From assembly GCF_045037415.1 (NCBI RefSeq), contig NZ_CP173438.1: DNA of 64,000 nucleotides. One strand, given 5' to 3'. Positions 2,738 through 62,671 of this stretch are shown one piece after another. Below the pieces are notes generated by a model. The model was not told the DNA's origin, did not search any database, and saw only the letters and a list, made by a program, of their open reading frames with translations. Source of the stretch: Escherichia coli. GTDB lineage: Bacteria; Pseudomonadota; Gammaproteobacteria; Enterobacterales; Enterobacteriaceae. Numbering within the stretch: position 1 is the stretch's first letter; every line of letters begins with the position of its first letter. The position numbers were made by a program, and so were the translations under genes.

Positions 2738-3829
2738 TCAAACCTTCGGCTTCTCCCCCATTCGCCGTAAAAACTGCTGCTGTAGCCTCAACAAATCCGC
2801 TAACGTCAACAACTGATAATCCAGACCTTGCTGGCTGGCAATTTGCGCAATAATGCGGCTTAGCGCCGAATAATGGCGATGATGCCAGTGAGGAAACAGA
2901 TGATGGGTAAGGTGCAGATTAATCCCACCCAGCCAGTAGCCAAGCCATGCAGGTTGCGGCGTCCAATCAAAGGTGGTAGCAAAGGTATGCGCCAGTCTGC
3001 CCACGGGCATTTTGCCCTCTTCTGGTGGTAACTGCGTATGTCCCTTCGCCCAGTGCGTTCCAATAATCAACGTCACAAAAATCAATGACGCCAGCAGCTG
3101 GCTGAGCAGATAAGTCAGCAGGATGGTCATAAAACTAAAATCAGACAAAAGCCAGGGAATTATCAGACACAGCGCACAATGCGCCAGTTTCCCGGCTAAG
3201 AAATATCCCCAGCCAGCAAAGCCTCGCAGGGCCAGATGTCGCGTGACCGGCGTAAACCCTGCGCGATCGAGCCAGTCCACTACCCAGATATACCAGGGAA
3301 AGGTGAGCGCGGCGACCAGTGGCCAATAGCGATGTTGCTGGCGCATAAAAGGTCGCCACCGTTGCCACGGCGTCTGGCGAAGAATGCCATTTTCTGCTGT
3401 ATCTGGATCGTAAAATTCAATATTGGTAAAACCGTGATGAAAGCGAACGTGGCGCACCCGCCAGCAGTCCGGATCTAGCCCCATAGGAAAAGCAACCCAC
3501 CGGTTAAGCCGGGCATTGGTCTTTTTACCACGCAAAAACGCATCATGCGAAGCGTCATGCACCACATTGACCGCTAACAACATGGCGCAAAACATCATCG
3601 CGAGATACCACAACAGATACAGTCCCCATTGACGTTGAAATAACGCCAGTAAGTAACAGGAGAAACAAGCAATAATCAACACCGCCATTTTGACGAATGC
3701 CCATCCGTCGGCATACCGATGATCGCCTGATTTCGCCAGATAAACTTTCGTACCGCTTTGCAGTTGTTTCACCAGTTGTGGATCATCGGCAGGAAAAGTG
3801 ATTAACCTGTCGGGATTAAACAGGTTCAT
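2738..3829 (-). CDS. membrane fatty-acid desaturase family protein
   Basis: 363-aa ORF with three histidine boxes (HDASHDAF, HVRFHHGF, HLTHHLFPHWHH) and several hydrophobic segments; last gene of the 7-gene operon. Confidence 0.7.
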   Translation of the reverse strand: MNLFNPDRLITFPADDPQLVKQLQSGTKVYLAKSGDHRYADGWAFVKMAVLIIACFSCYLLALFQRQWGLYLLWYLAMMFCAMLLAVNVVHDASHDAFLRGKKTNARLNRWVAFPMGLDPDCWRVRHVRFHHGFTNIEFYDPDTAENGILRQTPWQRWRPFMRQQHRYWPLVAALTFPWYIWVVDWLDRAGFTPVTRHLALRGFAGWGYFLAGKLAHCALCLIIPWLLSDFSFMTILLTYLLSQLLASLIFVTLIIGTHWAKGHTQLPPEEGKMPVGRLAHTFATTFDWTPQPAWLGYWLGGINLHLTHHLFPHWHHRHYSALSRIIAQIASQQGLDYQLLTLADLLRLQQQFLRRMGEKPKV

Positions 3830-4940
3830 ACTGTTTCCTTAGCGATTTACGTCCTACGCCGATTACAAATAACAGGCAATGGGCCAGCAGAATACCCACT
3901 AATCCCTTCCAGAGCAGAGTACTCCATGAACACATATAGACAATAAAATAGAGCAGTGACAACGTCACAGAGCACCACAAAATCATACCCCAATGCTGCC
4001 CGTCGCTCATGCCCCCCAGCGCAACGGAGCCTGCCGCCAGCAGAACAAATAATACGGCTTGCTCGCTGGTAATAAACTCAATGCCATAGCCATATTGTTG
4101 AATGTAGCCAAGCACCAGCATAAACAGCAGGATCACCCCTGCCCCTACCGCCCATGGAGAACTCTGGTAGCGACCTTCAATCGCTTTGCCAAATGAGCAA
4201 AAGCCCATTAAGCGTAAAAATGGCAGATTACTCTCGCGCATCGGGTTACAGGACAAGCGACTATTTTTTACGCCGTAGCCTACGTCGTATTCCGGCCCGG
4301 CACTATACGAACCGAAAAGTTTATCCCACAACAAAAAGGTGCCACCGTAATTGGTATCGGCATATTGCTTTTGATTCAGATGATGGACGCGATGATGCGA
4401 AGGCGTGATCAGCACTTTTTCCAGCCAGCCCAGTTTCGGCGTTAGTGCGTTATGGTTAAAAAATTGCCAACTATAGTGAATAATAGAAACCGCCAAAAAG
4501 ACCTGTAACGGCACACCAAGCATCGCCAGCAGCATAAAAAACGGGATTGAGGTTAACGAGGAGTACCACGAGTTCCGCACGCCTAATGACAGGTTGTAGT
4601 GTTCCCCCTGATGATGCACCACATGTACCGCCCACAGCGGGCGCATTTCGTGATGCCAGCGATGTAGCCAGTAAAAGCCGAAATCCCACGCCAGGATAGT
4701 AAACAACCACAGCAGGATCACCGGCACATTATCAAACAGTCCAAGGCTGAAGTGATTGACCACCAGGCCATAGCAGAGCACTTCCAGGCAGCGAAATAAC
4801 CACAGCATCATATGACCGGAGTTGATATTAAAAATAACGTCCAGCCAGTCCACTTTTTGCCGCCCGGTGAATTGCAACACGCCCGCTTCGGCTAACACCA
4901 ACAGCACCATCGATATGATGGGGAATAATAAATCACTCAT
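3816..4940 (-). CDS. fatty-acid hydroxylase / sterol desaturase superfamily membrane protein
   Basis: 374-aa ORF with histidine motifs HRWHHEMRPLWAVHVVHH and HHRVHH; overlaps both neighbouring genes. Confidence 0.7.
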   Translation of the reverse strand: MSDLLFPIISMVLLVLAEAGVLQFTGRQKVDWLDVIFNINSGHMMLWLFRCLEVLCYGLVVNHFSLGLFDNVPVILLWLFTILAWDFGFYWLHRWHHEMRPLWAVHVVHHQGEHYNLSLGVRNSWYSSLTSIPFFMLLAMLGVPLQVFLAVSIIHYSWQFFNHNALTPKLGWLEKVLITPSHHRVHHLNQKQYADTNYGGTFLLWDKLFGSYSAGPEYDVGYGVKNSRLSCNPMRESNLPFLRLMGFCSFGKAIEGRYQSSPWAVGAGVILLFMLVLGYIQQYGYGIEFITSEQAVLFVLLAAGSVALGGMSDGQHWGMILWCSVTLSLLYFIVYMCSWSTLLWKGLVGILLAHCLLFVIGVGRKSLRKQYEPV

Positions 4941-5535
4941 ATTGTGTCTTCCTTTTCTCGCATGTTGCGCATATCCAACCGCAAATCGACGCCAGCAACG
5001 CGCCGCCTACTAAATCGATAAATAAATGTCTGCGTAATTGCAGAATCGAAAAGGCGATTGCTATCGCCCAGACCACGCTCATTAGCGTCAGCCAACGGTT
5101 CCCCTTTTTAGCAATCGCCCATACCGCCAACAGCGTTAGCGCGGCGTGTAAGGAGGGAAAACAGTTCTGGCTTGAGTCAATGGCGATCAGCCTGTTGAGT
5201 GCGCCCGCGGATATCCCCATCTGATCAAACGAGGGATAATGCATGGTTGTGGGCCAGAGAAGATAAAATACGCCAGCCACCAGTGCGGAAATTTGCATTG
5301 AACGGGCCAGCCAGCGCAGGTGGCAAAGTGGCGTGGATAAATAACCTAACGGCACAATGAAAAAAAACGAGAGATACAGCCACACAGCGGAGGGGGAAAA
5401 CGCAATCAAATTATCAATTATTGACGGTGTTAATTGATATCCCTCACCTTGCAGGTAGTCGCTAAAGTTGTAGATAACCCCAACAGTTCCCCAGCCCAGC
5501 AGCATCTGTTTCAGGCGTAGCAGTGAATTGCTCAT
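4933..5535 (-). CDS. PAP2-like membrane phosphatase family protein
   Basis: ORF 4933..5697; likely start is the internal ATG at 5535 (MSNSLLRLKQ), which overlaps the upstream stop as ATGA; PAP2-like PSLH and RRHLFID motifs in a polytopic membrane protein. Confidence 0.55.
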   Translation of the reverse strand: MSNSLLRLKQMLLGWGTVGVIYNFSDYLQGEGYQLTPSIIDNLIAFSPSAVWLYLSFFFIVPLGYLSTPLCHLRWLARSMQISALVAGVFYLLWPTTMHYPSFDQMGISAGALNRLIAIDSSQNCFPSLHAALTLLAVWAIAKKGNRWLTLMSVVWAIAIAFSILQLRRHLFIDLVGGALLASICGWICATCEKRKTQYE

Positions 5536-6818
5536 TCCCGCCCCCACTGACGCACAATGCGCCGCCGCTTGGCTGTAAAAGAGACTGGCACAGTTTGCAG
5601 TTCCAGCGACCAAATTAATTGCCCGACAGCGATATCCTGGCGTATAAACAAGGCATTCAACGCCTCCCGGCAATGCTCCAGCATCCACAGCTCGCAATCG
5701 GCGATTAACGTCAATTGTGCTGACCCGGTTTGTAGCAGGCGATAATCGACTGTTAGCGGCAGTGTCATTGCCAGCACACGACTACAGGCATCGGCAAAAA
5801 CGGTCTGAATATCGCCGGATCTTGTTGGTAGTTGCAGTTGGTCATCCTGCCGCCCTTCGATACGCGCAATCGCCATTGTTGCACTGCCACAGGGGCATGG
5901 CTGTTCGCTTGCCACCAGCACATCATCCAGTCGATAACGCACTATCGGCTGTGTGGTGCGGGTAAAGTCTGTGACGATCGGCACGAAACGGTGCTCATCC
6001 AGCCATTGCGGTTCAATGTGAACAAACTCTTCGTTGAGATGTAACGTTCCACACCGGCAGGTGGAAGCGAGAAAGCCTTCTGTCGCCTGATAAATTTCCC
6101 CCACATTGTGGAACACGTTGCGCAGTAATTCCCGATCCTGCGGCTCCAGAACTTCCGCCACCGAAATCACTTTTTTGACCTTTAGCGTCAATTCGCCGGC
6201 CATCACCTCCAGCGCCAGTGCGCGTAATACCTGAGCTGGCGCGACAATAATCGTGGGCGCTCGCTGTTGGAGAAGTTTGAGTTGCGCCTGAAATGGCGCT
6301 AGCAGATCGTAAAAATCGAGACTTAACCAGCGATTATTCACGCTTTGATACAGGTTGTTGTCCGCGCGCAGAAACAGCGCCACCCGCTCTTTGGCAAATA
6401 AATCATCGGGCAACACTTTTGCCAGCACACCGGCGGCCCACATCTGTTGCTCGTGCGGGCTAACAACAAAAAGTCCACGACGCCCGGATGTACCTGATGA
6501 AAGCCCAACGCTGAACTTACCAACGCAGGGTTTGAAATCACGACTCTGCTCACTGCGCATTGCACAATCGAGAAGTTCGTCGCGCTTTAAACCTGCGGTA
6601 TTCATCTCATCGAAGTGCGTCATCATTAACGCTTTATCCATCATTGGCCACTGATTAAAGGGCAACGTCAGATAACGCTGAAACCACGGGCTATGAGATA
6701 AGACATTTTGCCGGAACTGATGCAGCCTTTTTGCCTGCCAGTTTTCCAGTGCCTCGCGATCGGTGAAATGCAGCCTGCGGGTACGGAAGTAGCGCCAGAT
6801 CAACATCAACGGGATCAT
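5532..6818 (-). CDS. adenylate-forming enzyme (PaaK / F390-synthetase-like acyl-CoA ligase)
   Basis: 428-aa ORF with an ANL-type phosphate-binding motif (SSGTSGRRG); size fits the PaaK-like subfamily; ATGA overlap with the upstream gene. Confidence 0.65.
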   Translation of the reverse strand: MIPLMLIWRYFRTRRLHFTDREALENWQAKRLHQFRQNVLSHSPWFQRYLTLPFNQWPMMDKALMMTHFDEMNTAGLKRDELLDCAMRSEQSRDFKPCVGKFSVGLSSGTSGRRGLFVVSPHEQQMWAAGVLAKVLPDDLFAKERVALFLRADNNLYQSVNNRWLSLDFYDLLAPFQAQLKLLQQRAPTIIVAPAQVLRALALEVMAGELTLKVKKVISVAEVLEPQDRELLRNVFHNVGEIYQATEGFLASTCRCGTLHLNEEFVHIEPQWLDEHRFVPIVTDFTRTTQPIVRYRLDDVLVASEQPCPCGSATMAIARIEGRQDDQLQLPTRSGDIQTVFADACSRVLAMTLPLTVDYRLLQTGSAQLTLIADCELWMLEHCREALNALFIRQDIAVGQLIWSLELQTVPVSFTAKRRRIVRQWGRE

Positions 6819-7621
6819 AAATCCCCCTCATGGCACAAACGAATCTCCACCACACCGTTTTGCCAAAGCTGATGGAGTTGCCCAAGCGTGTGGTAGTAGG
6901 CGTGGCTGTCGGACATAACCAGATGCGCCAGTGGTGAAGGCCCTCGCAGCTCCCGGTAGTTAGCTGGCGCCCATGCCGCATCGCCAGCCAGTAAAGTCCA
7001 GCCGTTGTCGGTTAACACAAACGCGCCAATATGTCCGGCAGCATGTCCTGGAAGCGGCACGAGAATAATTTCGCCATTGCTTTCTGGCAGCAAATAGCCG
7101 CACTCAAACGGTGCCAGTTGCGCGGGCAAATTCACCGATGCGAAACTTTCAATAAAGCGCAGTGAGGAGTCAAAATTCTCCGGGATTAGCCCTGGCACAA
7201 AGGCCTGGCGCAGCGCAGTGACACCACGCAGAGTTCTTACTTGCCGCCAGCCTTCACCAGAACAGATGCAGGAAACATCAGGGAAATCACGCAGGCCAGC
7301 AATATGATCAGCGTGAAAATGCGACAGAATAATCGCATCAACATCTTTCGCTGCGAGGCCGGTGGCAGAAAGTTGTCGCACCAGCGCCTGTTGCGGATCG
7401 AAATAAACCGGCGTGACCTGGCGATAAAGACGAAACACACCAGATTGCGTGTAGTGTTCGAACCACGATGAATAGCCTGTGTCCCACAGCCACCGTTTGT
7501 CGCCCACCTCCAGCAGCCAGGCGCGGGCGGGGAATTTGCACACTTTCAGCCCTGCCCCTTTCAGCGCAATACAGCTAATATGGGTACACCAGCCCGTTTC
7601 AAATGCGGTTATTTTTGCCAT
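6815..7621 (-). CDS. metallo-beta-lactamase-fold hydrolase
   Basis: 268-aa ORF with the HxHxDH zinc motif (ILSHFHADHIAG). Confidence 0.7.
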   Translation of the reverse strand: MAKITAFETGWCTHISCIALKGAGLKVCKFPARAWLLEVGDKRWLWDTGYSSWFEHYTQSGVFRLYRQVTPVYFDPQQALVRQLSATGLAAKDVDAIILSHFHADHIAGLRDFPDVSCICSGEGWRQVRTLRGVTALRQAFVPGLIPENFDSSLRFIESFASVNLPAQLAPFECGYLLPESNGEIILVPLPGHAAGHIGAFVLTDNGWTLLAGDAAWAPANYRELRGPSPLAHLVMSDSHAYYHTLGQLHQLWQNGVVEIRLCHEGDL

Positions 7622-8615
7622 GTTCCCTCAGCCATTGTCCCGTGATTGCAATACCTTGTTCCATCGAAAAGCGTGGGCGATATCCCAGCTCTGTAATGGC
7701 CTTTTGCGCACTCAGCGTCATATCGAAACAGAGTGTTCCGGCGCTGTATCGTGTGATAACAGGTTCCTGATTAACGCACTTCCCATACAGTTCCAGGCCA
7801 CGCGCGATCAGAGAAAGCAGCGACCAGGGAACAGCAGCAATGCGGTAACTCAAGCCCAGTTGCTGGTGCAGCAAGGCGTCAAGCATCACCGATAGCTGCT
7901 GCGGCTGGTGATTGCTGATGTTGTAAATACTGCCCGAGCGTAAGCCTTCAACGTTCGTTGCCAGCCGCATGGCATACACCACGTTTTGCACGAACGTGAG
8001 ATCCAATAACGCGTCGCCCCCGCGCGGCAAACGTAAGCAACCGCCGCCCTGTTGCAATTGCTGCATCAGACGAGGAACAATTACCTGGTCATGGGGGCCA
8101 AACAAACCACGGGGACGCAAAAGAATAAATCTCGTGGCAGAATATCGAGAAACAGCGCCAGCAATAACCTGCTCAGCGGCATATTTACTGCTGGCATAAT
8201 GGCTGGAGAATGCTCGCGCAAGATAAGTTTCTGGCAGGTCATAGTGATGTTGAAAATCAAAGTAAACCGCAGGCGTGGAGATATGGATAAACCGGGGAAT
8301 ATTCAGCCTGCCTGCCGCCTGTGCCAGAGTGTGGGTCACTTTGACATTGGCAAGCCAGAACGCCGTTTTGTCGCCCCAGGGCGAGGACTTTGCCGCACAG
8401 TGCCAGACGGCATCGCAGCCGTCCATCAGGCGGGCGCAGTCATCCTCGGTTGCCTCGGTTAAATCGAGAGCCACAAACTGTGCGCCTGCGTTTGTCAGGC
8501 TTCTGCCAACCTCACAATTTCGCCCTGTTGCCACAACCGACTCACCCGATTGCAACAAATATTGCACGGCATTTCGCCCAAGGCCGCTGGTCGCCCCTGT
8601 TACGAGGATCTTCAC
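7599..8615 (-). CDS. NAD(P)-dependent epimerase/dehydratase-family reductase (extended SDR)
   Basis: 338-aa ORF; N-terminal Rossmann motif MKILVTGATSGLGRN and catalytic YxxxK (YASSKYAAE). Confidence 0.75.
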   Translation of the reverse strand: MKILVTGATSGLGRNAVQYLLQSGESVVATGRNCEVGRSLTNAGAQFVALDLTEATEDDCARLMDGCDAVWHCAAKSSPWGDKTAFWLANVKVTHTLAQAAGRLNIPRFIHISTPAVYFDFQHHYDLPETYLARAFSSHYASSKYAAEQVIAGAVSRYSATRFILLRPRGLFGPHDQVIVPRLMQQLQQGGGCLRLPRGGDALLDLTFVQNVVYAMRLATNVEGLRSGSIYNISNHQPQQLSVMLDALLHQQLGLSYRIAAVPWSLLSLIARGLELYGKCVNQEPVITRYSAGTLCFDMTLSAQKAITELGYRPRFSMEQGIAITGQWLREHGKNNRI

Positions 8616-9655
8616 GGTAAAAGCACCATGCCAGCCAGCGTTAGTCCCGCTGCCGTGCCAATCAACATTACAGGTTTATCCGCTGTGAAACGACCGCTAA
8701 TCACTGCTTCATGCAGCGCCGTGGGGATAGAGGCCGCGACCTGATTGCCGTAAAAACGATACACATCGATGAGCGCAGATTCCGGCACTCGCAGCCGTTT
8801 ACGCATATGTTCAAGGGAAAGATGACTGGCCTGATGCGGAACGACCGTGCCGATATCAGACAGTTGCAGGCTGCTTTTTTGCAGCAACCGAGAAAAATAA
8901 TCTTCAATAAGCGAAGAAGCAAAACGAAACAGCGGTTTCCCCTGCATATGAAAAAGAAAGTCGCTATCACTCACACCAGAGCGAGGATTACGCCGCGTAC
9001 CGCCAGCACGAATTTCACACAGTTCGCTGCCTTCGGGATACATTTCGATCAGGCTAGCGATAATCCCGCTGCGCCCATCGCCCCGCTCAACAATCGCGCA
9101 CGCCGCGCCATCACCAAAAATTAATGAAGACTCTTCATGATCCCAGTCGATACCGCGTGAAGCAATATCTGCCGAAACGATGGCAATGCGTCGATATGCT
9201 CCACAGTTTAATAATCCGGCAGCGACTTCAAGAGCGGAAATAAAGCTCACACAGCTACTGTTGATATCAAACCCGGCAACGCCTACGGGCATGGCTGCGG
9301 CTTTAAGAATATGAATTGCGCTACAGGGTAATGCCTGTACGGCAATGGCCGATGCACAAATTAGCAGATCAATATCAGAAGGATTTAAGGCTGCCGCTAC
9401 TAACGCATTATGTAAAGCCTCTGCCGCCAGTTCGGCCTGGCTGGCGTCGTTGCGGGCAAAATAGCGCCAGCAAATACCGGAACGTCGCTCAACATAGCCA
9501 ACTGGCTTATTTAACTGAACATCCAGTTGTTTAGAAGTGATTTGATCAGGGGGTAAGGCGATCCCCGTGGCGATTATTTTTAACGCCGCGGAGATCGTCG
9601 GTTGATTAGGTCGAGCCACGGTCAGTGCTCCTTCACTGCTCCATAGGTGGACCAA
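8612..9655 (-). CDS. FabH-like (KAS III / thiolase-fold) condensing enzyme
   Basis: 347-aa ORF with FabH-like His and Asn regions (VPHQASHLSL, YGNQVAASIP) and a candidate nucleophile Cys (LICASAIAV); first gene of the operon, starting 90 bp downstream of the narI stop. Confidence 0.7.
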   Translation of the reverse strand: MVHLWSSEGALTVARPNQPTISAALKIIATGIALPPDQITSKQLDVQLNKPVGYVERRSGICWRYFARNDASQAELAAEALHNALVAAALNPSDIDLLICASAIAVQALPCSAIHILKAAAMPVGVAGFDINSSCVSFISALEVAAGLLNCGAYRRIAIVSADIASRGIDWDHEESSLIFGDGAACAIVERGDGRSGIIASLIEMYPEGSELCEIRAGGTRRNPRSGVSDSDFLFHMQGKPLFRFASSLIEDYFSRLLQKSSLQLSDIGTVVPHQASHLSLEHMRKRLRVPESALIDVYRFYGNQVAASIPTALHEAVISGRFTADKPVMLIGTAAGLTLAGMVLLP

Positions 9656-15600: not shown

Positions 15601-16409
15601 TCAGTAAAGAAGTGAGCATCCGGGGTACGCGTCTGCGGCACGTTTGAACCCCAGGCGATGATGTAGCTGGAGTTGTACCAGTCAGCAGATTCCGGTACGT
15701 CAGTTTGCTCACCCCAGGTTTGCGGAGACGCAGGAGGCAGGTCGCAGTACCAGTCGTAGAAGCTTAAGCAAGTACCGCCAATCAGCGAGAGATAGCGCGC
15801 ACCCGATGCGTAAGAAACCATCGACATTGCCGGAATTGGCGAGAAGCCAGCGACACGGTCCGGGCCGTAATTTTTGATGGTGTAAACGTTAGATGCGGCG
15901 ATCAGTTCGTTCACTTCCTGCCAGGAAGAACGAACAAAACCACCGCGTCCACGCGCCTGCTTAAAGCTTTTCGCTTTATCGGCGTCTTCAATGATAGAAG
16001 CCCATGCCTCAACCGGATCGCTATGCAGCGCCTTCGCTTCACGCCACATTTTCATCAGGCGTTTGCGCATCATCGGGTATTTCAGGCGGTTAGCGCTGTA
16101 AAGATACCAGGAGTAGCTGGCACCGCGCGGGCAGCCGCGAGGTTCATGGTTTGGCAGGTCCGGGCGAGTACGCGGATAGTCAGTCTGCTGGGTTTCCCAG
16201 GTGACCAGACCGTTTTTGACGTAGATTTTCCAGCTGCAGGAGCCGGTGCAGTTTACCCCGTGGGTAGAGCGGACGATTTTGTCATGCTGCCAACGCTGGC
16301 GATATCCATCCTCCCAGTCACGGTTGGTATTGAGAAGCTGGCCATGCCCATCGGCAAAGGTTTCACCCTTCTGTTTGAAGTAGCGAAACCGGTCCAGGAA
16401 TTTACTCAT
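12666..16409 (-). CDS. narG: respiratory nitrate reductase 1 alpha subunit (molybdoenzyme)
   Basis: 1247-aa ORF starting MSKFLDRFRYFKQKGETFADGHGQ with an N-terminal Cys/His Fe-S motif; canonical NarG. Confidence 0.95.
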   Translation of the reverse strand: MSKFLDRFRYFKQKGETFADGHGQLLNTNRDWEDGYRQRWQHDKIVRSTHGVNCTGSCSWKIYVKNGLVTWETQQTDYPRTRPDLPNHEPRGCPRGASYSWYLYSANRLKYPMMRKRLMKMWREAKALHSDPVEAWASIIEDADKAKSFKQARGRGGFVRSSWQEVNELIAASNVYTIKNYGPDRVAGFSPIPAMSMVSYASGARYLSLIGGTCLSFYDWYCDLPPASPQTWGEQTDVPESADWYNSSYIIAWGSNVPQTRTPDAHFFTEVRYKGTKTVAVTPDYAEIAKLCDLWLAPKQGTDAAMALAMGHVMLREFHLDNPSQYFTDYVRRYTDMPMLVMLEERDGYYAAGRMLRAADLVDALGQENNPEWKTVAFNTNGEMVAPNGSIGFRWGEKGKWNLEQRDGKTGEETELQLSLLGSQDEIAEVGFPYFGGDGTEHFNKVELENVLLHKLPVKRLQLADGSTALVTTVYDLTLANYGLERGLNDVNCATSYDDVKAYTPAWAEQITGVSRSQIIRIAREFADNADKTHGRSMIIVGAGLNHWYHLDMNYRGLINMLIFCGCVGQSGGGWAHYVGQEKLRPQTGWQPLAFALDWQRPARHMNSTSYFYNHSSQWRYETVTAEELLSPMADKSRYTGHLIDFNVRAERMGWLPSAPQLGTNPLTIAREAEKAGMNPVDYTVKSLKEGSIRFAAEQPENGKNHPRNLFIWRSNLLGSSGKGHEFMLKYLLGTEHGIQGKDLGQQGGVKPEEVDWQDNGLEGKLDLVVTLDFRLSSTCLYSDIILPTATWYEKDDMNTSDMHPFIHPLSAAVDPAWEAKSDWEIYKAIAKKFSEVCVGHLGKETDIVTLPIQHDSAAELAQPLDVKDWKKGECDLIPGKTAPHIMVVERDYPATYERFTSIGPLMEKIGNGGKGIAWNTQSEMDLLRKLNYTKAEGPAKGQPMLNTAIDAAEMILTLAPETNGQVAVKAWAALSEFTGRDHTHLALNKEDEKIRFRDIQAQPRKIISSPTWSGLEDEHVSYNAGYTNVHELIPWRTLSGRQQLYQDHQWMRDFGESLLVYRPPIDTRSVKEVMGQKSNGNPEKALNFLTPHQKWGIHSTYSDNLLMLTLGRGGPVVWLSEADAKELGIADNDWIEVFNSNGALTARAVVSQRVPAGMTMMYHAQERIVNLPGSEITQQRGGIHNSVTRITPKPTHMIGGYAHLAYGFNYYGTVGSNRDEFVVVRKMKNIDWLDGEGNDQVQESVK

Positions 16410-16500
16410 CGGTTTTCTCCTGTGGGAGCCTGTCGGCCCTCTGATAAATCGACATTGCTAATGTTTAAGGGCAAGGTAACGCTCTGAAACAGCGTGGGAA

Positions 16501-16514
16501 TTGATAACGATCAA
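16501..16514. promoter_or_regulatory. FNR consensus box (TTGATAACGATCAA) in the narG promoter
   Basis: Perfect TTGAT-N4-ATCAA palindrome centred about 98 bp upstream of the narG ATG, consistent with a class II FNR site at -41.5. Confidence 0.65.
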
Positions 16515-16801
16515 GAGTGATGGGGATGAAAAATAAAGTAAATTCCTGGAATACCCCTTTAGGATAATTAACATTTATAGCATAACAGACTGTAAATTAA
16601 GACGTTTTACACCTGTGGTTATTTAAACCATTAAGATTTTTATGCAGATGGGTATTAAGGAGTATTCCCCATGGGTAACATATTAATGACTCTTAATGAA
16701 ATCCAGCGAAATAAGCCATACAACATTAGTATGTTGTAACTAAATGACGCATAAAAAAAGCGCGACATCATGCCGCGCAAAGGATAATCAAATATTACGA
16801 T

Positions 16802-18193
16802 TTATTTTTTAGAATGCCGACCATATACCGCCCAGGTAATCACCACGCAGGCGATATAGAAAATCAAAAATACTTTCATTGCGCCGACTGGCGAACCCGT
16901 TAATGCCAGCGAGCTACCAAACGCTTTCGGGATAAAGAAGCCACCAATCGCGCCAATCGCAGAGATGAAACCCAGCGCCGCCGCCGTGTCGGTTGCCGCT
17001 TCACGCATCGCACGTTCGTCAGAACCCCCTTCTGCTTTCACGCGATCCATTGTCAGTTTACGGAAGATCACGGAAATCATCTGGAAAGTGGAACCACTAC
17101 CCAGCCCAGCGGTCAGGAACAGCGCAAGGAAGACTGCGAAGAACGCCATGAAGCTTCCGCCCTGTCCGTCAGTCGGTAAGGTCAGGAACAGCAGGCCGCT
17201 GAAAATCGCCATCAGGATAAAGTTCACCAGCGTGACACGAGTTCCGCCCAGACGGTCAGATAATGCACCACCTGCAGAACGCGCCAGCGCACCAATAAAC
17301 GGCCCGAAGAAAGCGTATTGCAGAATCTGAACATCCGGGAACTGCGTTTTTGACAGCATCGCAAAGCCCGCGGAGAAGCCGATGAAGGAGCCGAAGGTTG
17401 CCAGATACAGAAGGCTCATAATCCACAGATGACCCCGTTTGAGTACCGGCAACTGCTCCTTGATGGAGGCTTTCGAGGTAGCAAGATCGTTCATGCCAAA
17501 CCACGCCGCAATGGTGAAGATGGCAAGGAACGGCACCCATATCCAGGACGCATTCGCCAGATACAGCTCAGTCCCATCCGGCTGTTTGACGCCCTGGCTA
17601 CCAAATACTGCGAAAATCGACAGTGATACCACCAGCGGAGCAACCAACTGCATGACGCTGACGCCCATGTTGCCCAGACCACCATTCAGACCCAGCGCGC
17701 CACCCTGCTTCTGTTTCGGAAAGAAGAAGCTGATGTTTGCCATACTGGATGCGAAGTTCGCGCCAGCAAAGCCGCACAGCAGAGAAATGATGATGAAGAC
17801 GCTATAAGGCGTGGAGGTATCCTGCACGGCAAAACCCAGCCAGACGCAAGGAATAATCAGAATACCGGTGCTGAACGCCGTCCAGCGACGACCACCAAAG
17901 ATAGGAACCATAAAGGAGTATGGAACACGTAATAACGCGCCAGAAACCGAAGGCAGCGCAGTCAACATAAATAGCTGATCGGTCGTAAAATTAAAACCGA
18001 CTTTCGGTAAGTTCACCGCAACAGCGCTGAACAACATCCATACGCAAAACGCCAGCAACAGACAGGGAACGGAAATCCACAGGTTGCGGCTGGCAATACG
18101 TTGACCGCGTTGTTGCCAGAACGCAGGATCTTCCGGTCGCCAATCTGTAATGACAGCTCCAGTAGCCCTTTCGGGGGCGGATGAGTGACTCAT
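16802..18193 (-). CDS. narK: nitrate/nitrite transporter (MFS)
   Basis: ORF 16802..18199; start set at the ATG giving MSHSSAPERATGAV; 12-TM MFS protein in the expected position. Confidence 0.9.
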   Translation of the reverse strand: MSHSSAPERATGAVITDWRPEDPAFWQQRGQRIASRNLWISVPCLLLAFCVWMLFSAVAVNLPKVGFNFTTDQLFMLTALPSVSGALLRVPYSFMVPIFGGRRWTAFSTGILIIPCVWLGFAVQDTSTPYSVFIIISLLCGFAGANFASSMANISFFFPKQKQGGALGLNGGLGNMGVSVMQLVAPLVVSLSIFAVFGSQGVKQPDGTELYLANASWIWVPFLAIFTIAAWFGMNDLATSKASIKEQLPVLKRGHLWIMSLLYLATFGSFIGFSAGFAMLSKTQFPDVQILQYAFFGPFIGALARSAGGALSDRLGGTRVTLVNFILMAIFSGLLFLTLPTDGQGGSFMAFFAVFLALFLTAGLGSGSTFQMISVIFRKLTMDRVKAEGGSDERAMREAATDTAAALGFISAIGAIGGFFIPKAFGSSLALTGSPVGAMKVFLIFYIACVVITWAVYGRHSKK

Positions 18194-18252
18194 AGACACC
18201 TCTGATACTCGTTTCGATGTCTGCCACCTTAGTGTCTGTAGCTAAAGGCAAT

Positions 18253-18266
18253 TTGATGTAAATCAA
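18253..18266. promoter_or_regulatory. FNR consensus box (TTGATGTAAATCAA) in the narK promoter
   Basis: Perfect TTGAT-N4-ATCAA about 66 bp upstream of the narK ATG; a second weaker FNR-like site (TTGATATTTATCAT) lies at 18291-18304. Confidence 0.6.
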
Positions 18267-18531
18267 ACGATAAGATAACTTTATCTATCATTGATATTTA
18301 TCATTATCCATAGTGAGTACAGTGATTTCATAAAAATTATGAGATTTTTCACGGTACTGTAAAATCCCTACCCTTACCGATGTAAAGCGACTAACCACAC
18401 GGCAAATAAGGAGTAACTCTTTCCGGGTATGGGTATACTTCAGCCAATAGCCGAGAATACTGCCATTCCAGAATGTATCGTCACATTCATTAAGGTTATT
18501 GCTCATTTAAAGCCTGAAGGAAGAGGTTTAC

Positions 18532-20328
18532 ATGCTTAAACGTTGTCTCTCTCCGCTCACCCTGGTTAATCAGGTTGCGCTTATTGTGTTGCTTTCTACT
18601 GCTATTGGACTGGCAGGGATGGCGGTTTCTGGCTGGCTGGTGCAAGGCGTTCAGGGCAGCGCCCATGCGATCAACAAAGCGGGATCGCTGCGCATGCAAA
18701 GTTACCGTCTGTTGGCAGCAGTGCCATTAAGCGAGAAAGACAAGCCCTTAATTAAAGAGATGGAACAAACAGCATTTAGCGCCGAGTTGACTCGAGCAGC
18801 AGAACGAGACGGGCAACTGGCGCAATTACAGGGTTTACAAGATTACTGGCGTAATGAACTGATCCCTGCACTGATACGTGCACAAAACCGCGAAACGGTG
18901 TCAGCGGATGTCAGCCAGTTTGTTGCCGGGCTTGATCAGCTGGTATCTGGTTTTGATCGCACCACGGAAATGCGCATTGAGACAGTGGTGCTGGTCCATC
19001 GGGTAATGGCGGTATTTATGGCACTTTTACTGGTATTCACTATTATCTGGTTGCGGGCGAGATTGCTACAACCGTGGCGGCAACTGCTGGCAATGGCGAG
19101 TGCCGTCAGCCATCGCGATTTTACCCAACGCGCAAACATCAGCGGGCGCAACGAAATGGCGATGCTTGGAACTGCGTTGAACAATATGTCTGCAGAACTG
19201 GCGGAAAGTTATGCCGTACTTGAGCAGCGGGTTCAGGAGAAAACCGCTGGGCTGGAGCATAAAAATCAGATCCTCTCTTTTTTATGGCAGGCTAACCGCC
19301 GTTTGCATTCCCGCGCCCCGCTGTGTGAACGCCTGTCACCTGTACTCAACGGCTTACAGAATTTAACCCTGCTACGTGATATCGAACTGCGGGTGTATGA
19401 CACTGATGATGAAGAGAATCATCAGGAGTTTACCTGCCAGTCAGATATGACTTGTGATGATAAAGGCTGCCAGCTCTGCCCGCGCGGCGTATTACCCGTT
19501 GGCGATCGCGGCACAACCCTGAAGTGGCGGCTGGCTGACACTCATACGCAGTACGGTATTTTGCTGGCGACCCTGCCGCAGGGGCGTCATCTTAGCCATG
19601 ATCAACAACAACTGGTGGATACCCTGGTTGAACAACTCACCGCCACGCTGGCGCTGGATCGCCATCAGGAACGTCAGCAACAGTTGATCGTGATGGAAGA
19701 GCGTGCCACCATTGCGCGCGAACTGCATGATTCTATTGCCCAATCTCTCTCTTGCATGAAGATGCAGGTGAGTTGCTTACAGATGCAGGGCGATGCGCTG
19801 CCAGAAAGCAGCCGCGAACTGTTAAGTCAGATCCGTAACGAACTGAATGCATCCTGGGTGCAGTTGCGTGAATTGCTCACCACATTCCGTTTGCAGCTCA
19901 CCGAGCCTGGATTACGTCCGGCGCTGGAGGCGAGTTGCGAAGAGTACAGCGCCAAATTTGGCTTCCCGGTGAAGCTGGATTATCAATTGCCGCCTCGTCT
20001 GGTGCCTTCGCATCAGGCAATCCACTTGTTGCAAATTGCCCGTGAGGCATTAAGTAACGCCCTCAAACATTCGCAAGCGAGTGAGGTCGTGGTGACGGTG
20101 GCGCAAAACGATAATCAGGTCAAACTGACCGTCCAGGATAACGGCTGCGGCGTGCCTGAAAATGCCATCCGCAGCAATCACTACGGCATGATAATAATGC
20201 GCGACCGTGCGCAAAGTTTACGAGGCGATTGCCGCGTCCGCCGTCGTGAATCAGGTGGCACCGAAGTGGTGGTCACCTTTATTCCCGAAAAAACTTTCAC
20301 AGACGTCCAAGGAGATACCCATGAGTAA
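18532..20328 (+). CDS. narX: nitrate/nitrite sensor histidine kinase
   Basis: 598-aa ORF with two N-terminal TM segments, a HAMP region, the H-box ([11 protein letters not shown]) and an ATPase domain; stop overlaps the narL start. Confidence 0.95.
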
Positions 20329-20970
20329 TCAGGAACCGGCTACTATCCTGCTGATCGACGATCACCCGATGTTGCGAACTGGCGTAAAACAGCTTATCAG
20401 TATGGCACCAGATATCACTGTGGTTGGCGAAGCGAGTAATGGCGAACAGGGTATTGAACTGGCGGAGTTCTTGATCCCGATCTGATCCTGTTAGATCTCA
20501 ATATGCCCGGCATGAACGGTCTGGAAACGCTGGATAAACTGCGCGAAAAGTCCCTCTCCGGGCGCATTGTGGTATTCAGCGTCTCTAACCATGAAGAAGA
20601 TGTGGTCACCGCACTGAAACGCGGCGCGGATGGCTATCTGTTAAAAGATATGGAACCGGAAGATCTGCTGAAAGCGTTACATCAGGCAGCTGCTGGCGAA
20701 ATGGTATTAAGCGAAGCATTAACGCCTGTTCTGGCCGCCAGCTTGCGCGCTAACCGTGCCACTACTGAGCGCGATGTTAACCAGTTAACCCCACGCGAGC
20801 GCGATATTCTCAAGCTGATTGCCCAGGGTTTGCCGAACAAGATGATTGCCCGCCGCCTGGACATCACCGAAAGCACAGTAAAAGTTCACGTCAAGCACAT
20901 GCTGAAGAAAATGAAGCTAAAGTCTCGCGTGGAAGCTGCGGTATGGGTGCATCAGGAGCGCATTTTCTGA
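20321..20970 (+). pseudogene. narL: nitrate/nitrite response regulator NarL, interrupted by a 1-bp frameshift
   Basis: The ATG at 20321 gives [49 protein letters not shown], then the frame breaks near 20466-20470 (reads GAGTTCTTGAT where TCTCTT is expected from memory of K-12) and hits TGA at 20483; the rest of NarL ([17 protein letters not shown]... to the LuxR HTH) continues in another frame as ORF 20503..20970. Confidence 0.75.
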
Positions 20971-22365
20971 TTACGGTTCCCAGCGCAGTTCGTCGTTTGA
21001 CAATGCGTCGAACGGTTCGACAAGCGTTAGCGTGATCTCATTGGAGGAGACACGCTGCCCCTGGTTATCTTCCACCACTACAGACAATCGCCAGTGATTG
21101 CTCGCCCCTTCCCCGTTCTGCCAGTCAGGCATGATCAGCGTCCAGCCCTCCTCACTGTTGGCTTGTGCGCCCGGCGTCAAACTTAATATCTGCGTATCGC
21201 CCTGCCAAATCAGTTGCCGAATACCGTAACGACTGCGGATTTGTAATTTCAGCGGCACTGTTTCGCCAGGTTTTAGATCCCACGGCGGTGTCGCCAGAAA
21301 CACCGTTAACGTTTTTCGCTGTCGGTACTCAAGAGTCGGAAGATTATTTCGCTGCGGATTGTCATAGCGACTACCACGTAACGACTGACTTTCGACAACC
21401 TCGCCCGCAGAAAGTTGTTTTTTGAGCGGTACACCAAAGCGGTAGTTAAGATTCAGCCCGAGGTTATTTTGATTCTCGCCACTTTCACCCTGTTTATGCT
21501 GGGCCGTCACAGTGACTAAGGGCACAGGGGTGTAATTTAATCCCAGACTCAACGCGACGGGATTGTGATAACCCGTACCAGAGTTAAACAAATCGACACG
21601 ATCACCAAAATACTGTTCTACGCTGACACTGGTATTGAGGTGTTGATAGAACGGCATGCGCATCCGGGCTGTCAGGTCGTACCCGCGCGCCATCCGTTGT
21701 TCCTGCGTGGCAGTCTGTTCATGCCATGCAGCAAACGGCTGATAAAAGTTTGCCGATAGTCGCAAATATTCGCCCCACGCTTCAGCGCCAAAGCCCGCTC
21801 GCTGAAGATTTTCGTCCAGCAAGTTGTCATAAAAAGTGTTATAACCCACCAGCCAGCTGCCGCGCGCCCAGCGTTGCCCAACGCCCACATTGCTCACCAG
21901 CCCATCATCCTGCTGAGTAAGACCAAGCTGGCTCCAGGTGAGATAACGATCATTATCTTGTAACGGCACAAACCAGCTTCCACGACTGCCGGTGAAATGT
22001 CCTTCGTTATCCACTTTGACGTCAACACTGGCATTTCCCCACGGTGATAGCCAGGACTCTACGTGCTGATTAACCTGTTGACTAAGCGCATCGCGGACTT
22101 TTCCCAATGCGAAAGCTTTTGCCTGCTCGCCAGTATCCAGCCCGTTATCATTCATACTGGTTTCGCCGAAATCTTTCACAATTTCAGCAAAGTGTTTTTC
22201 CCCATCATGATGTTCAGGTGCCATGCCTAAATCCGGCAGACCATCATTGCTATTCTCAAAGTGATTTGCCGCTTTTTGCTCGAAGGTAGATTGTGCGTTA
22301 GCTGTACCGCCTGCCGCCAGCAAGAGTAAATAAAACGGAATAATGCGAGGAACGAAACGGCTCAA
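20971..22365 (-). CDS. ychO: invasin/intimin-family outer-membrane protein YchO
   Basis: 464-aa ORF with a signal peptide (LLLLAAGGTANA) and predicted beta-rich body, convergent with narL as in K-12; exact start uncertain. Confidence 0.75.
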   Translation of the reverse strand: MSRFVPRIIPFYLLLLAAGGTANAQSTFEQKAANHFENSNDGLPDLGMAPEHHDGEKHFAEIVKDFGETSMNDNGLDTGEQAKAFALGKVRDALSQQVNQHVESWLSPWGNASVDVKVDNEGHFTGSRGSWFVPLQDNDRYLTWSQLGLTQQDDGLVSNVGVGQRWARGSWLVGYNTFYDNLLDENLQRAGFGAEAWGEYLRLSANFYQPFAAWHEQTATQEQRMARGYDLTARMRMPFYQHLNTSVSVEQYFGDRVDLFNSGTGYHNPVALSLGLNYTPVPLVTVTAQHKQGESGENQNNLGLNLNYRFGVPLKKQLSAGEVVESQSLRGSRYDNPQRNNLPTLEYRQRKTLTVFLATPPWDLKPGETVPLKLQIRSRYGIRQLIWQGDTQILSLTPGAQANSEEGWTLIMPDWQNGEGASNHWRLSVVVEDNQGQRVSSNEITLTLVEPFDALSNDELRWEP

Positions 22366-22374
22366 AACGTCGGT

Positions 22375-22532
<158 letters not shown>

Positions 22533-22549
22533 GAATACAGGAGTAAATA

Positions 22550-22903
22550 ATGCAAAAAATCGTGATCGTTGCCAATGGCGCACCTTACGGGAGCGAATCC
22601 TTGTTTAACAGCTTGCGGCTGGCCATTGCGTTACGAGAGCAGGAGAACAATCTGGATCTGCGTCTGTTCCTGATGTCTGATGCGGTCACAGCCGGGTTGC
22701 GCGGGCAAAAACCAGGGGAAGGCTACAACATTCAGCAAATGCTGGAGATCCTTACCGCTCAGAATGTACCGGTGAAATTGTGCAAAACCTGTACCGACGG
22801 GCGCGGGATTAGTACACTTCCTCTGATTGATGGGGTGGAAATCGGTACTCTTGTTGAACTGGCGCAATGGACGCTGTCAGCCGATAAAGTGCTCACATTT
22901 TAA
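22550..22903 (+). CDS. ychN: DsrE/DsrF-like family protein YchN
   Basis: 117-aa ORF MQKIVIVANGAPYGSESLFNSLRLA. Confidence 0.85.
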   Translation: MQKIVIVANGAPYGSESLFNSLRLAIALREQENNLDLRLFLMSDAVTAGLRGQKPGEGYNIQQMLEILTAQNVPVKLCKTCTDGRGISTLPLIDGVEIGTLVELAQWTLSADKVLTF

Positions 22904-22946
22904 TGTTTGAGGGGGCGTCGGACGCCCCACTATGAGGGAAGTTTAC

Positions 22947-23678
22947 TCAGGCGAATCCCGGCCGTAACACACCATCCGGATAATTCTCCGCCAGCAGTTT
23001 TTTTACCGATACCAGCAAATCATTCAGCCCATCGTCCTGCATTCCCAGTTTGATAAGCTCCTGTTCCAGTGAAAACAGGTATTGTGCATTGGTTCCCAGC
23101 GGACCGCTCGCCGCGGCAATCAACGGCGCTATGACCTGAGCGCGAGTGTCAGATTCATATTCTGGATGTCGCGGGTCCATAATAAACACAATGGCGTTTA
23201 CTGTGCGTCCATCATCAAGATCAAGCTGACACCAGGTTGGCAGATAACAGCCGGTAATCATCTCACGCTTCCACAGCAGGGTTAGTTCCTGCTCCAGCGT
23301 CTCTTCTGGCAGTCGATAGGCGACGCCTGTGGTGCGTCCGCCCTCTTTCAGTGCAAGCATTCGTCCCGGCTGGTGCGCAGTCCCGCGCCCGGCGGTCAGA
23401 CGCAGGCAAAACGCGCGATGCCATCCAACCAGTGTACCGGTGCACGACTCGGTAAACTCCAGTGCCGGATTCCACATCAACGATCCATAACCGAAGATCC
23501 ACACCGGTCCCTCATCAGGTCGACAAGCCAGCGTCGCCGCCAGCGAAGCCGCCCGTTGTTCTGCTGACCATAAGAGTGATTCTTCAATGGCACCAAATGC
23601 CGTTTTACAATCGGCATTCATCAAGAAATCACGCGTTATCACCTTACACCTCCGCCACTGCATACTTCCCTGCGACAA
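22947..23678 (-). CDS. chaC: glutathione-specific gamma-glutamylcyclotransferase ChaC
   Basis: ORF with the ChaC motif VWIFGYGSLMWNP; the true start is probably internal to the 243-aa ORF. Confidence 0.8.
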   Translation of the reverse strand: MSQGSMQWRRCKVITRDFLMNADCKTAFGAIEESLLWSAEQRAASLAATLACRPDEGPVWIFGYGSLMWNPALEFTESCTGTLVGWHRAFCLRLTAGRGTAHQPGRMLALKEGGRTTGVAYRLPEETLEQELTLLWKREMITGCYLPTWCQLDLDDGRTVNAIVFIMDPRHPEYESDTRAQVIAPLIAAASGPLGTNAQYLFSLEQELIKLGMQDDGLNDLLVSVKKLLAENYPDGVLRPGFA

Positions 23679-23790
23679 CTTTTTGGTGTCTTCCGGACAT
23701 TTTTACTGCTCATTTTGAAACCACTAACGGGACAATATGCAATCCACGGACCACTTGCAAGGCAACACCGCACGAATAGCTTTAACTAAG

Positions 23791-24030
23791 CTACCGGTTT
23801 GACGATTTTTTATGCCATTTATCATCATCCCCTTTGGCATATTCATGCTTCACAGCAGCCCAGGCCACTTTATGCGCTGTTTCTTCGCGACTGGCGTCAT
23901 CACGCCGATCTTCTTTATCTTTATATTGATCCCATGCGCTGTTGAACGCTTCTTTATAGATATCCTGGGCATGAGACGGAAGCACGTGCTTTACGCTTTC
24001 CGGCAGATCGCTTTTCGTTTTATACGACAT
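23791..24030 (-). CDS. chaB: cation transport regulator ChaB
   Basis: 79-aa ORF ...YKTKSDLPESVKHVLPSHAQDIYKEAFNSAWDQYKDK, matching ChaB. Confidence 0.85.
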   Translation of the reverse strand: MSYKTKSDLPESVKHVLPSHAQDIYKEAFNSAWDQYKDKEDRRDDASREETAHKVAWAAVKHEYAKGDDDKWHKKSSNR

Positions 24031-24299
24031 CGTTGACTCCTTTTACAAAGTTGAACATTAAGTGTGGTCAACAATATCTACTCTTGCCAAAACATAAGAA
24101 TTTTCATGTCAGACTCTTCTTAAGAAGTGCTAAAACAAACATTGTCTAAACGTATTACTAATTTTTATGCCCAAATGAGTAAAAAACCGACAGCGGGGTA
24201 AAAATTCGTAAAATGTTACCGATATCCAGACAATTTCTGTTATTTTTCCTACCTATTTTTTACATTTTCGATAAATTCATCTGCAAAGGGATAACCATA

Positions 24300-25400
24300 A
24301 TGTCAAATGCTCAAGAGGCGGTAAAAACCCGCCACAAGGAGACTTCGCTTATTTTCCCGGTTCTGGCGCTGGTAGTGCTGTTCCTGTGGGGAAGCAGCCA
24401 GACACTACCAGTGGTCATTGCCATCAATCTTCTTGCGCTTATTGGTATTTTAAGTAGCGCCTTTAGTGTTGTCCGTCATGCGGACGTATTAGCCCATCGC
24501 CTGGGAGAACCTTACGGTTCGCTTATTCTTAGCCTTTCAGTGGTTATTCTTGAAGTCAGTTTGATTTCAGCTTTAATGGCAACCGGCGATGCCGCGCCAA
24601 CGCTAATGCGTGATACGCTCTATTCAATCATTATGATTGTTACAGGTGGGCTGGTTGGCTTTTCATTATTGTTGGGCGGACGTAAGTTTGCCACCCAATA
24701 TATGAATCTGTTTGGTATCAAGCAGTATTTAATTGCGCTGTTCCCCCTGGCGATAATCGTACTGGTATTTCCAATGGCTCTGCCTGCGGCGAATTTTTCA
24801 ACAGGTCAGGCGTTACTGGTAGCATTAATTTCTGCGGCAATGTATGGCGTATTTTTGCTGATCCAGACCAAAACGCATCAAAGTTTGTTTGTCTACGAGC
24901 ACGAAGATGACAGTGATGATGACGACCCGCACCACGGTAAACCGTCTGCCCATAGCAGCCTGTGGCATGCCATCTGGTTGATTGTCCATCTGATTGCCGT
25001 TATTGCAGTCACCAAAATGAACGCCAGCCCGCTGGAGACATTGCTCGACAGCATGAATGCGCCTGTCGCCTTTACTGGCTTCCTGGTGGCTCTGTTGATT
25101 CTGTCGCCGGAAGGTTTAGGTGCGTTAAAAGCAGTGTTGAATAACCAGGTCCAGCGCGCGATGAATCTGTTCTTTGGTTCAGTGTTGGCAACCATTTCGC
25201 TTACCGTACCTGTCGTCACGCTAATTGCCTTTATGACGGGTAACGAATTGCAGTTTGCACTTGGTGCGCCAGAAATGGTGGTGATGGTGGCCTCTTTAGT
25301 ACTGTGCCATATCTCCTTCTCCACCGGACGAACTAACGTGCTCAATGGCGCAGCGCATCTGGCACTGTTTGCCGCCTATTTGATGACGATATTTGCCTGA
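24300..25400 (+). CDS. chaA: Ca2+/H+ (Na+/H+) antiporter ChaA
   Basis: ORF 24213..25400; start set at the ATG at 24300 (MSNAQEAVKTRHKETS); polytopic CaCA-family membrane protein, 366 aa. Confidence 0.85.
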   Translation: MSNAQEAVKTRHKETSLIFPVLALVVLFLWGSSQTLPVVIAINLLALIGILSSAFSVVRHADVLAHRLGEPYGSLILSLSVVILEVSLISALMATGDAAPTLMRDTLYSIIMIVTGGLVGFSLLLGGRKFATQYMNLFGIKQYLIALFPLAIIVLVFPMALPAANFSTGQALLVALISAAMYGVFLLIQTKTHQSLFVYEHEDDSDDDDPHHGKPSAHSSLWHAIWLIVHLIAVIAVTKMNASPLETLLDSMNAPVAFTGFLVALLILSPEGLGALKAVLNNQVQRAMNLFFGSVLATISLTVPVVTLIAFMTGNELQFALGAPEMVVMVASLVLCHISFSTGRTNVLNGAAHLALFAAYLMTIFA

Positions 25401-25804
25401 CAGTTATATCTCCTCCGATGACGGAAATCGGGGGAGATAATATAAATTCCTGCTTATTATATTTCTTCATACTAGCTGGACAGGTTGTTAATCAGAATTG
25501 CAAGCCTGTACCACAACCTGCACGAAATGACTGCAACAGCTGTTGAAAAACCGGAATGTACTCTTTATTGCAAACATTTCAGGGATGAAGTGAAGATGAA
25601 TTGCGACGTAGTATCCACACCAAGCCGGCGTTATCCGGTGAGGCGCAATGTTGCGGGGGCTTTATCCCTGGTGGCATTGGTTGCTGGAAAGAGAAAACCC
25701 CCGCACGTTGAGAGGTACAACCTGACAACAGAACGGGGGCTAATCTTGAACCAGAACAATTCAAGAATAGCCGCAAAATGTTGTCATTACAACAAGGCGG
25801 CTAT

Positions 25805-62154: not shown

Positions 62155-62155
62155 G

Positions 62156-62671
62156 TTATAAATCCAGTAGATCAATTGCGGTCAATCGGTCGAATTCAGA
62201 ACCCCATTGCCCCACATTCTGAGATATATATGAAGCAAGTTCTTCATCCGTATATTCATAGAATTGCTTTGTGACCCAAGAGGCACGTTCTGCGAGCTCT
62301 TTTGAATACTGTGACATCAAAAGCCGCACAAACCTTCCTGTTAAATTGGTAGCCTGATACAAAATACCTTCGGCAGCAAAGACAACCTTAATCAATTCTC
62401 TTGATAGCATTAAATGCAGCCCTGCCTGAATTGCGCTTCGCTTAACAAGAAGCTCTGCTCCCCGGTGAGGAACTGCTGGATGAAGGCTTTTAGGCCCCCT
62501 AGGTACGTCACTGGTATGCACAAGAAGATAGTCATACGAAACTATCCTTTGTAGGTCCATTGCTACATTGTCCGCTGCATCCAATATGAACAGAGCACGA
62601 AATCCATACTCCAGCGGAGTGTTAAAAGGTCTCTGCTCAAAGTTTCCTTCAAATACTTGCATTTCGCTCAT
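62156..62671 (-). CDS. small middle-component protein (LmuC/DdmB-like)
   Basis: ORF 62156..62683 opens with a non-ATG codon; the ATG at 62671 (MSEMQVFEG) overlaps the upstream stop as ATGA; about 171 aa, no recognisable catalytic motif. Confidence 0.6.
   Translation of the reverse strand: MSEMQVFEGNFEQRPFNTPLEYGFRALFILDAADNVAMDLQRIVSYDYLLVHTSDVPRGPKSLHPAVPHRGAELLVKRSAIQAGLHLMLSRELIKVVFAAEGILYQATNLTGRFVRLLMSQYSKELAERASWVTKQFYEYTDEELASYISQNVGQWGSEFDRLTAIDLLDL

Follow-up and report, generated by a model that had tools for sequence, protein, structure and literature searches.

A one-base frameshift in narL of an Escherichia coli ST131 genome: a probable long-read consensus error at a GTCTC motif

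Residual errors are documented in nanopore assemblies, both no more than a few bases from methylated positions, where a given motif is affected in some of its copies only, and in heteropolymers made of XY repeats (PMC12392509, PMC11170131). Strain EC958 of E. coli sequence type 131 (ST131) carries Eco31I, whose M2 methyltransferase is predicted to produce GGT(m5C)TC, where m5C is 5-methylcytosine (PMC4659465). Here we analysed narL, the gene for the nitrate regulator NarL, in a 64-kb stretch of E. coli DNA (the window; contig NZ_CP173438.1 of assembly GCF_045037415.1) in which its reading frame is broken by the loss of one base. We consider it probable that this frameshift is a long-read (nanopore-type) sequencing or consensus error at a GTCTC motif and not a true loss of the gene. 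This reading is favoured because a twin GTCTC loss was found in the intron gene ltrA of the same window, because calls at the ltrA site are inconsistent between assemblies, because the narL deletion recurs in an unrelated lineage and in a noisy contig, and because it is absent from complete RefSeq genomes.

The narL frame and its lineage context

The narL gene of the window begins with ATG at 20321, overlapping the end of narX (18532-20328), and lies like narX on the plus strand. Its frame reads from MSNQ to GIELAE, continues as FLIPI and ends at a TGA at 20483-20485, leaving a 54-residue stub (20321-20485) without the phospho-acceptor Asp59. Alignments to O25b:H4, EC958 and AH20E044 placed the lesion between 20468 and 20469, where the central C of GT[C]TC is missing (square brackets mark the lost base). 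With annotated intact ST131 narL as the reference, the missing base is nucleotide 149, in codon 50, and GAGTCTCTTGAT has become GAGT-TCTTGAT; the context is GGAGT[C]TCTTGATCCCGATCTGATCC, also written GGAGT[C]TCTTGATCCCG, and the deleted form within 20440-20500 reads GAGTTCTTGAT. The frame is therefore discontinuous after codon 49, with Asp59, the remainder of the receiver domain and the GerE/LuxR helix-turn-helix all in the +1 frame (20469-20970, plus strand). The first start codon of that frame is ATG 20503 (Met62), 17 nucleotides past the stop of the stub and lacking a Shine-Dalgarno sequence, from which 155 codons run to HQERIF and a stop at 20968-20970; in the public collection this Met62-to-end product bears PF00072 and PF00196. 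Identity to the annotated narL (WP_000070491.1) of ST131 genomes extends to 650 of 651 nucleotides. A preliminary description of the stretch, made from the sequence alone, had claimed that narL is split by a 1-bp deletion with the rest in the +1 frame, and translation and alignment agree with this; the K-12 sequence that it gave for the site is also correct, as the alignment to intact ST131 narL shows exactly one missing C.

The surroundings of narL are those of ST131. A 25-kb stretch around the gene matched EC958, JJ1886 and many other ST131 genomes, with 25,001 bases in the records against 25,000 in the query, and the window is assigned to this lineage. The gene order is also that of ST131, narL overlapping and following narX, adjoining ychO and standing divergent from narK-narGHJI. 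Positions 1-40546 of the window aligned to EC958 with no mismatch and a single gap, the one in narL, and narX is identical to that of EC958. Because of this match, narX, narK and narGHJI, together with the regions that control them, do not differ from their counterparts in an ordinary ST131 strain. Boxes of the FNR type (TTGAT-N4-ATCAA) were found at 16501 on the narG side and at 18253 and 18291 on the narK side, so that both the intactness of narX, narK and narGHJI, here equal to the intact annotated genes of EC958, and the presence of FNR boxes, as previously described, hold.

The deletion itself is rare. An 81-bp probe across it had no match at 100% identity in 5,421 complete RefSeq E. coli genomes that hold narL, among them more than 500 ST131 genomes and the nearest relatives of the window, and a variant lacking the adjacent T was likewise absent from this set. 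Inheritance within the lineage is not supported, the deletion being absent even from the nearest ST131 relatives. The idea that it is a common allele or a lineage marker was rejected on the same grounds.

GTCTC losses in ltrA and in public assemblies

A second deletion of the same kind lies in a group II intron of about 2.26 kb (40547-42806, plus strand, boundaries approximate to a few bases), inserted in the transposase gene of the IS3-family element ISEc24. The intron is absent from EC958 and is present at the same insertion point in nine RefSeq genomes of ST131 type, of which AH20E044 was the best match and served as the nearest relative in a comparison over 43 kb. The intron gene ltrA (41218-42725, plus strand), for a group II intron reverse transcriptase/maturase, is intact in AH20E044, with 503 amino acids, and split in the window into open reading frames (ORFs) of 359-364 amino acids, depending on the start codon, and 128 amino acids. 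Alignment to AH20E044 showed that one base is missing between 42251 and 42252 on the plus strand, the central C of an Eco31I site GGT[C]TC in the context GAGTGGT[C]TCAACGATCCCG. Both deletions of the window are thus losses of the central C of GTCTC, and their contexts are more alike than chance when anchored similarity is compared with random positions (P ~0.005). The ltrA site fits the predicted GGT(m5C)TC, with the lost base being the predicted m5C, while the narL site reads AGTCTC. The Eco31I locus itself is not within the window.

Over the 43 kb compared with AH20E044 the window has three private differences only: the narL deletion, the ltrA deletion and a single-nucleotide polymorphism (SNP) at 57321, where the window has A and all 510 genomes bearing this island have C, giving the missense change G133V in a hypothetical protein. 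The SNP lies 3 nucleotides from a minus-strand GTCTC and is a possible third case of this type of error. None of the three was found in complete RefSeq genomes, except for the ltrA deletion in seven records. Apart from the two deletions there is no further private indel in the 64 kb, and a low-quality region with many indels was rejected as an explanation, the window differing from EC958 or AH20E044 at the listed sites only and showing no homopolymer errors. Real micro-evolution in ST131 proceeds mostly by sparse SNPs. The 64 kb of the window hold three private changes, including two frameshifts that do not lie in homopolymers, and this spectrum looks like one of errors and unlike such micro-evolution.

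The one homopolymer difference seen in these comparisons, T9 in EC958 against T8 in both the window and AH20E044 at 50448, is specific to EC958. EC958 has two overlapping hypothetical ORFs in this region and AH20E044 a single coding sequence of 1,146 nucleotides; the EC958 reference may carry a frameshift or an error at this homopolymer.

We then examined the ltrA site in other assemblies. The seven RefSeq records with the deletion comprise records of one clone, on its chromosome and plasmids (strains E07, E08, E12 and E14), and one plasmid of strain 98215. The truncated ltrA protein is on record in just one further assembly, GCA_052953235.1, and not in the many short-read assemblies; a look-up of the ATG-start 359-residue ltrA product returned no match. 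The contig in question measures 5.02 Mb, and GCA_052953235.1 is hence a long-read assembly. This assembly and E08 share the same locus, the same intron variant and the same two real SNPs, and over 5 kb the only difference between them besides those at GGTCTC sites is an A6/A7 homopolymer. At the same ltrA GGTCTC, GCA_052953235.1 lacks a T (GGTC-C), E08 and the window lack the C (GGT-TC), and AH20E044 is intact. The central C is missing from E08 at a further GGT[C]TC as well, one that corresponds to window position 41826 and is intact in GCA_052953235.1, in AH20E044 and in the window. As judged from these alignments, such disagreement between sister assemblies reflects miscalls and not mutations. 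The same change at the same motif is moreover seen at several sites and in several assemblies, in narL and ltrA of the window and twice within ltrA of E08. A widespread real intron allele is not supported, given seven RefSeq records drawn mostly from one clone, one additional long-read assembly and an inconsistent base loss.

The 54-residue stub, which is unique to the narL deletion, was called in three public read-set assemblies (L014, L015 and L016). The second of these (SRR31598863) is 100% identical to window positions 15968-25663 over 9.7 kb, deletion included, and is probably the same isolate or clone as the window. L014 (SRR31599326), with a run accession 463 away from that of L015, is separated from the window by 315 SNPs without any gap, and it equals many genomes of phylogroup A/B1 type except for the narL gap (15,343 against 15,344 bases). 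An unrelated lineage therefore carries the narL deletion with no other private change. The third assembly, L016 (SRR15989154), consists of a 1.5-kb contig that is closest to E. coli C and ATCC 8739 and has three private lesions, namely T6 to T5 in narX, the narL deletion and an adjacent T>C; at 2 per kb these are read noise. The deletion is thus not inherited as that of a true pseudogene would be, being absent in ST131 relatives and present in two unrelated SNP backgrounds. Lineage-specific SNPs flank it as closely as 50 bp upstream and 90 bp downstream, and their proximity makes spread by recombination unlikely. A literature search for the run and assembly accessions found nothing.

Weighing mutation against consensus error

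The strongest competitor to a consensus error is a real, private loss of function, a true 1-bp narL deletion in this isolate, which we regard as unlikely. The window shows the deletion without ambiguity, and it is repeated in a read-set assembly that matches the window completely over 9.7 kb. Natural disruptions of narL do occur. The 155-residue Met62-to-end fragment is called in 280 index blocks of the public collection, and ten places with this fragment were inspected for the type of narL lesion. Three of them (L004, L007 and L012), in three differing SNP backgrounds, have an 80-bp deletion between 9-bp direct repeats, GAACTGGCG, located at window positions 20376-20384 and 20456-20464, that takes out part of the receiver domain. 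One carrier is a 5.03-Mb NCBI contig (GCA_014901755.1), and this repeat-mediated deletion is plausibly a true recurrent narL knockout. A larger deletion was found in one further place (L005), stop codons made by substitution in four (L008, L010, L011 and L013), and an AT duplication in L006 (ERR11473168) at nucleotide 157, within the Dam site TTGAT[AT]CCCG (brackets here marking the duplicated bases) and 8 nucleotides downstream of the site of the single-C deletion, leaving a 55-residue stub; this lesion falls in the same GATC-rich stretch as that deletion. In L009 (SRR27217294) Mu-like prophage genes (GemA, Mor, DUF3164 and others) directly adjoin the Met62-to-end fragment upstream of position 3001, and narL was hit here by insertion of a transposable phage. 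Genuine loss of narL thus occurs at low frequency, and for this reason a real mutation stays in play as a rival. None of these lesions has the peculiar properties of the deletion at nucleotide 149. A literature search for reports of narL frameshifts in E. coli gave nothing relevant, its single match concerning K. pneumoniae.

In favour of a real knockout, the ltrA deletion could instead have come by gene conversion from another intron copy. What a real knockout leaves unexplained is why an unrelated lineage has exactly this deletion and no other change, why it turns up again in a noisy third contig, and why the same 64 kb hold the twin GT[C]TC deletion and a GTCTC-adjacent private SNP. The absence of the narL deletion from 5,421 complete genomes, with more than 500 of ST131 among them, also speaks against a real knockout, as does the lack of any further decay in the flanking nar genes.

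A real recurrent hotspot would have the central, Eco31I-methylated C of GT(m5C)TC lost in vivo, knocking out narL independently in at least three lineages and also hitting intron copies. The same deletion in three SNP backgrounds, GT[C]TC losses at three different sites across assemblies and the coincidence of the lost C with the base predicted to be m5C in Eco31I sites would all fit. Two causes were proposed, template switching in the quasi-palindrome GAACT-GGCGG-AGT(C)TC and a process linked to Eco31I-type methylation or restriction. For the first, folding of the wild-type and mutant DNA showed that the deletion perfects a short inverted repeat, GAACT-GGCGG-AGTTC (20456-20470, plus strand), which is a weak argument; the stem is only 5 bp, the ltrA site has no quasi-palindrome, and this mechanism was kept only as a weak rival. 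For the second, damage to m5C yields C-to-T changes, not deletions, and GTCTC methylation alone is insufficient, as 45 of the 47 GTCTC sites in the window are intact. The sister assemblies, furthermore, drop different bases (C or T) at one site, which fits miscalling, and none of the 5,421 complete genomes is a carrier. We judge a hotspot very unlikely.

Several other mechanisms were tried at the level of the bases themselves. Homopolymer slippage was rejected, since the context is GTCTCTT and a lone C was lost, and so was templating by a nearby copy of the mutant sequence, of which there is none in the window; a window search and DNA folding found no repeat or templating copy that makes the narL site a natural hotspot. 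With the two deletions repaired the window has 47 GTCTC and 11 GATCCCG sites, and the two motifs are combined only at the two deleted sites. Proximity to Dam GATC or GATCCCG as the cause was nevertheless weakened by the second GT[C]TC deletion of E08, which has no nearby GATC, and the one GTCTC-N4-GATC site in the window that is intact also counts against it. Opposite-strand type IIS cleavage of the AlwI type (GGATC N4/N5) was rejected, the deleted base being at N5 for narL but at N6 for ltrA, and E. coli lacking efficient end joining.

The least credible alternative, which we hold to be extremely improbable, is an engineered allele put into several strains of one project by a short oligonucleotide (recombineering): two different lineages with run accessions 463 apart, a deletion that is the sole change in both, and lineage SNPs 50 bp upstream and 90 bp downstream that leave room for such an oligonucleotide would suit it, but the third carrier has an unrelated and much earlier accession, the twin ltrA deletion and the private SNP are left unexplained, gene knockouts are normally full deletions, and no paper citing these accessions was found.

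A consensus error accounts for all of the observations. A basecaller or polisher would have dropped the central C of a GTCTC motif, whose TCTC is a heteropolymer; in ST131 the dropped C would be the predicted m5C of Eco31I sites, GGT(m5C)TC, and the same error would have struck twice in the window, in narL and in ltrA. In the isolate itself narL would then be intact, and narGHJI and narK would be under normal NarX-NarL control. We infer that long reads underlie the source assembly and the three matching read sets, and that the miscall is caused by methylation together with sequence context. The preliminary description had offered a sequencing error and a real loss of NarL without choosing between them; the former has gained from the twin GT[C]TC loss, the disagreement of sister assemblies at the ltrA site, the recurrence and the absence from complete RefSeq genomes, and the latter is now disfavoured.

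Some observations weigh against a consensus error. L014 and L015 are otherwise free of errors over 10-15 kb, which would also fit short reads, and if SRR31598863 were Illumina data the narL deletion would be real. Real narL lesions of many kinds occur in public assemblies, as described above. The narL site reads AGTCTC and departs from the canonical Eco31I site (GGTCTC), and only one of the three backgrounds is ST131; m5C methylation therefore cannot be the general cause at narL. None of the 5,421 complete genomes, many of them nanopore-based, shows loss of the C or of the adjacent T at this site, and the error would therefore be not deterministic but at most an occasional miscall. The methylation-associated nanopore errors documented in the cited papers are, finally, mostly substitutions (C>T, G>A) and not deletions.

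Consequences and comparison with known systems

If the deletion is an artefact, as we consider probable, it should not be concluded from the frameshifted narL of this assembly that an ST131 isolate has lost its nitrate regulation. When E. coli is assembled from long reads, GT[C]TC sites, which in ST131 include the Eco31I sites, would then be worth checking for false frameshifts, above all within multicopy elements, which are beyond polishing with short reads. A real deletion would be of modest interest, as an ordinary knockout, private to this isolate, of a regulator that is well understood. The cell would make a 54-residue stub without Asp59, and re-initiation at ATG 20503 would yield small amounts of NarL(62-216) at most. 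Activation of narG, narK and fdnG by NarL would be expected to be lost, with it the nitrate induction of narGHJI, as would the repression of frd and dms by nitrate. Induction of the respiratory nitrate reductase by nitrate is a trait associated with growth in the inflamed gut. NarL activates the narG promoter, which NarP does not do to any useful extent. Cross-talk from NarP, on which nitrate induction would depend in the earlier scenario of a real loss, is doubtful because NarP does not substitute at narG; in a true narL null, nitrate induction of narG would be expected to be largely abolished and not handed to NarP. Only a hotspot, which we judge unlikely, would be notable.

Other features of the region were noted in passing. 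Between narI and tRNA-Tyr, at about 2740-9620 on the minus strand (EC958 1403700-1410581), lies a cluster of seven genes of the lipid-modification type, with products resembling or annotated as KAS III-like, epimerase, MBL hydrolase, F390-synthetase-related, PAP2 phosphatase, sterol desaturase-like and fatty-acid desaturase. The ST131 genome NZ_LS999560.1 matches window positions 8001-33000 in two pieces spanning about 777 extra bases, suggesting an insertion-sequence insertion somewhere in its nar-cha region. At the right end, a genomic island at about 60270-63780 on the minus strand (EC958 1351803-1355318) holds genes annotated in EC958 as 'ABC-three component system', beside which, just past the end of the window, is a retron Ec67-family reverse transcriptase; the setting resembles that of a defence island.

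Three kinds of known system bear on the narL deletion. The quasi-palindrome frameshift hotspots of E. coli resemble it in that the deletion turns an imperfect GAACT...AGTCTC into a perfect GAACT...AGTTC. The known hotspots have much longer stems, and the window differs from them in its 5-bp stem and in having an ltrA twin without such a repeat. Natural narL loss-of-function alleles resemble it in that the lesion falls within the first 61 codons, in the receiver domain, and leaves the 155-residue Met62-to-end ORF. They differ in having an evident mechanism or type, be it an 80-bp deletion between 9-bp repeats, a substitution stop, a prophage or a duplication, whereas the window shows a 1-bp loss outside any repeat, identical across unrelated backgrounds and with a twin elsewhere in the same window. 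Residual consensus errors of nanopore-only bacterial assemblies form the third kind (PMC12392509, PMC11170131, PMC6591954). There, as here, the changes are private and of single bases, at or near methylated motifs, which in the window are the predicted Eco31I GGT(m5C)TC and a Dam GATC 4-5 nucleotides downstream; only some occurrences of a motif are hit, and the TCTC repeat fits the heteropolymer class. Sister assemblies disagree in both cases, here at GGTCTC sites of ltrA, and errors persist in multicopy elements, such as the group II intron that carries the twin deletion.

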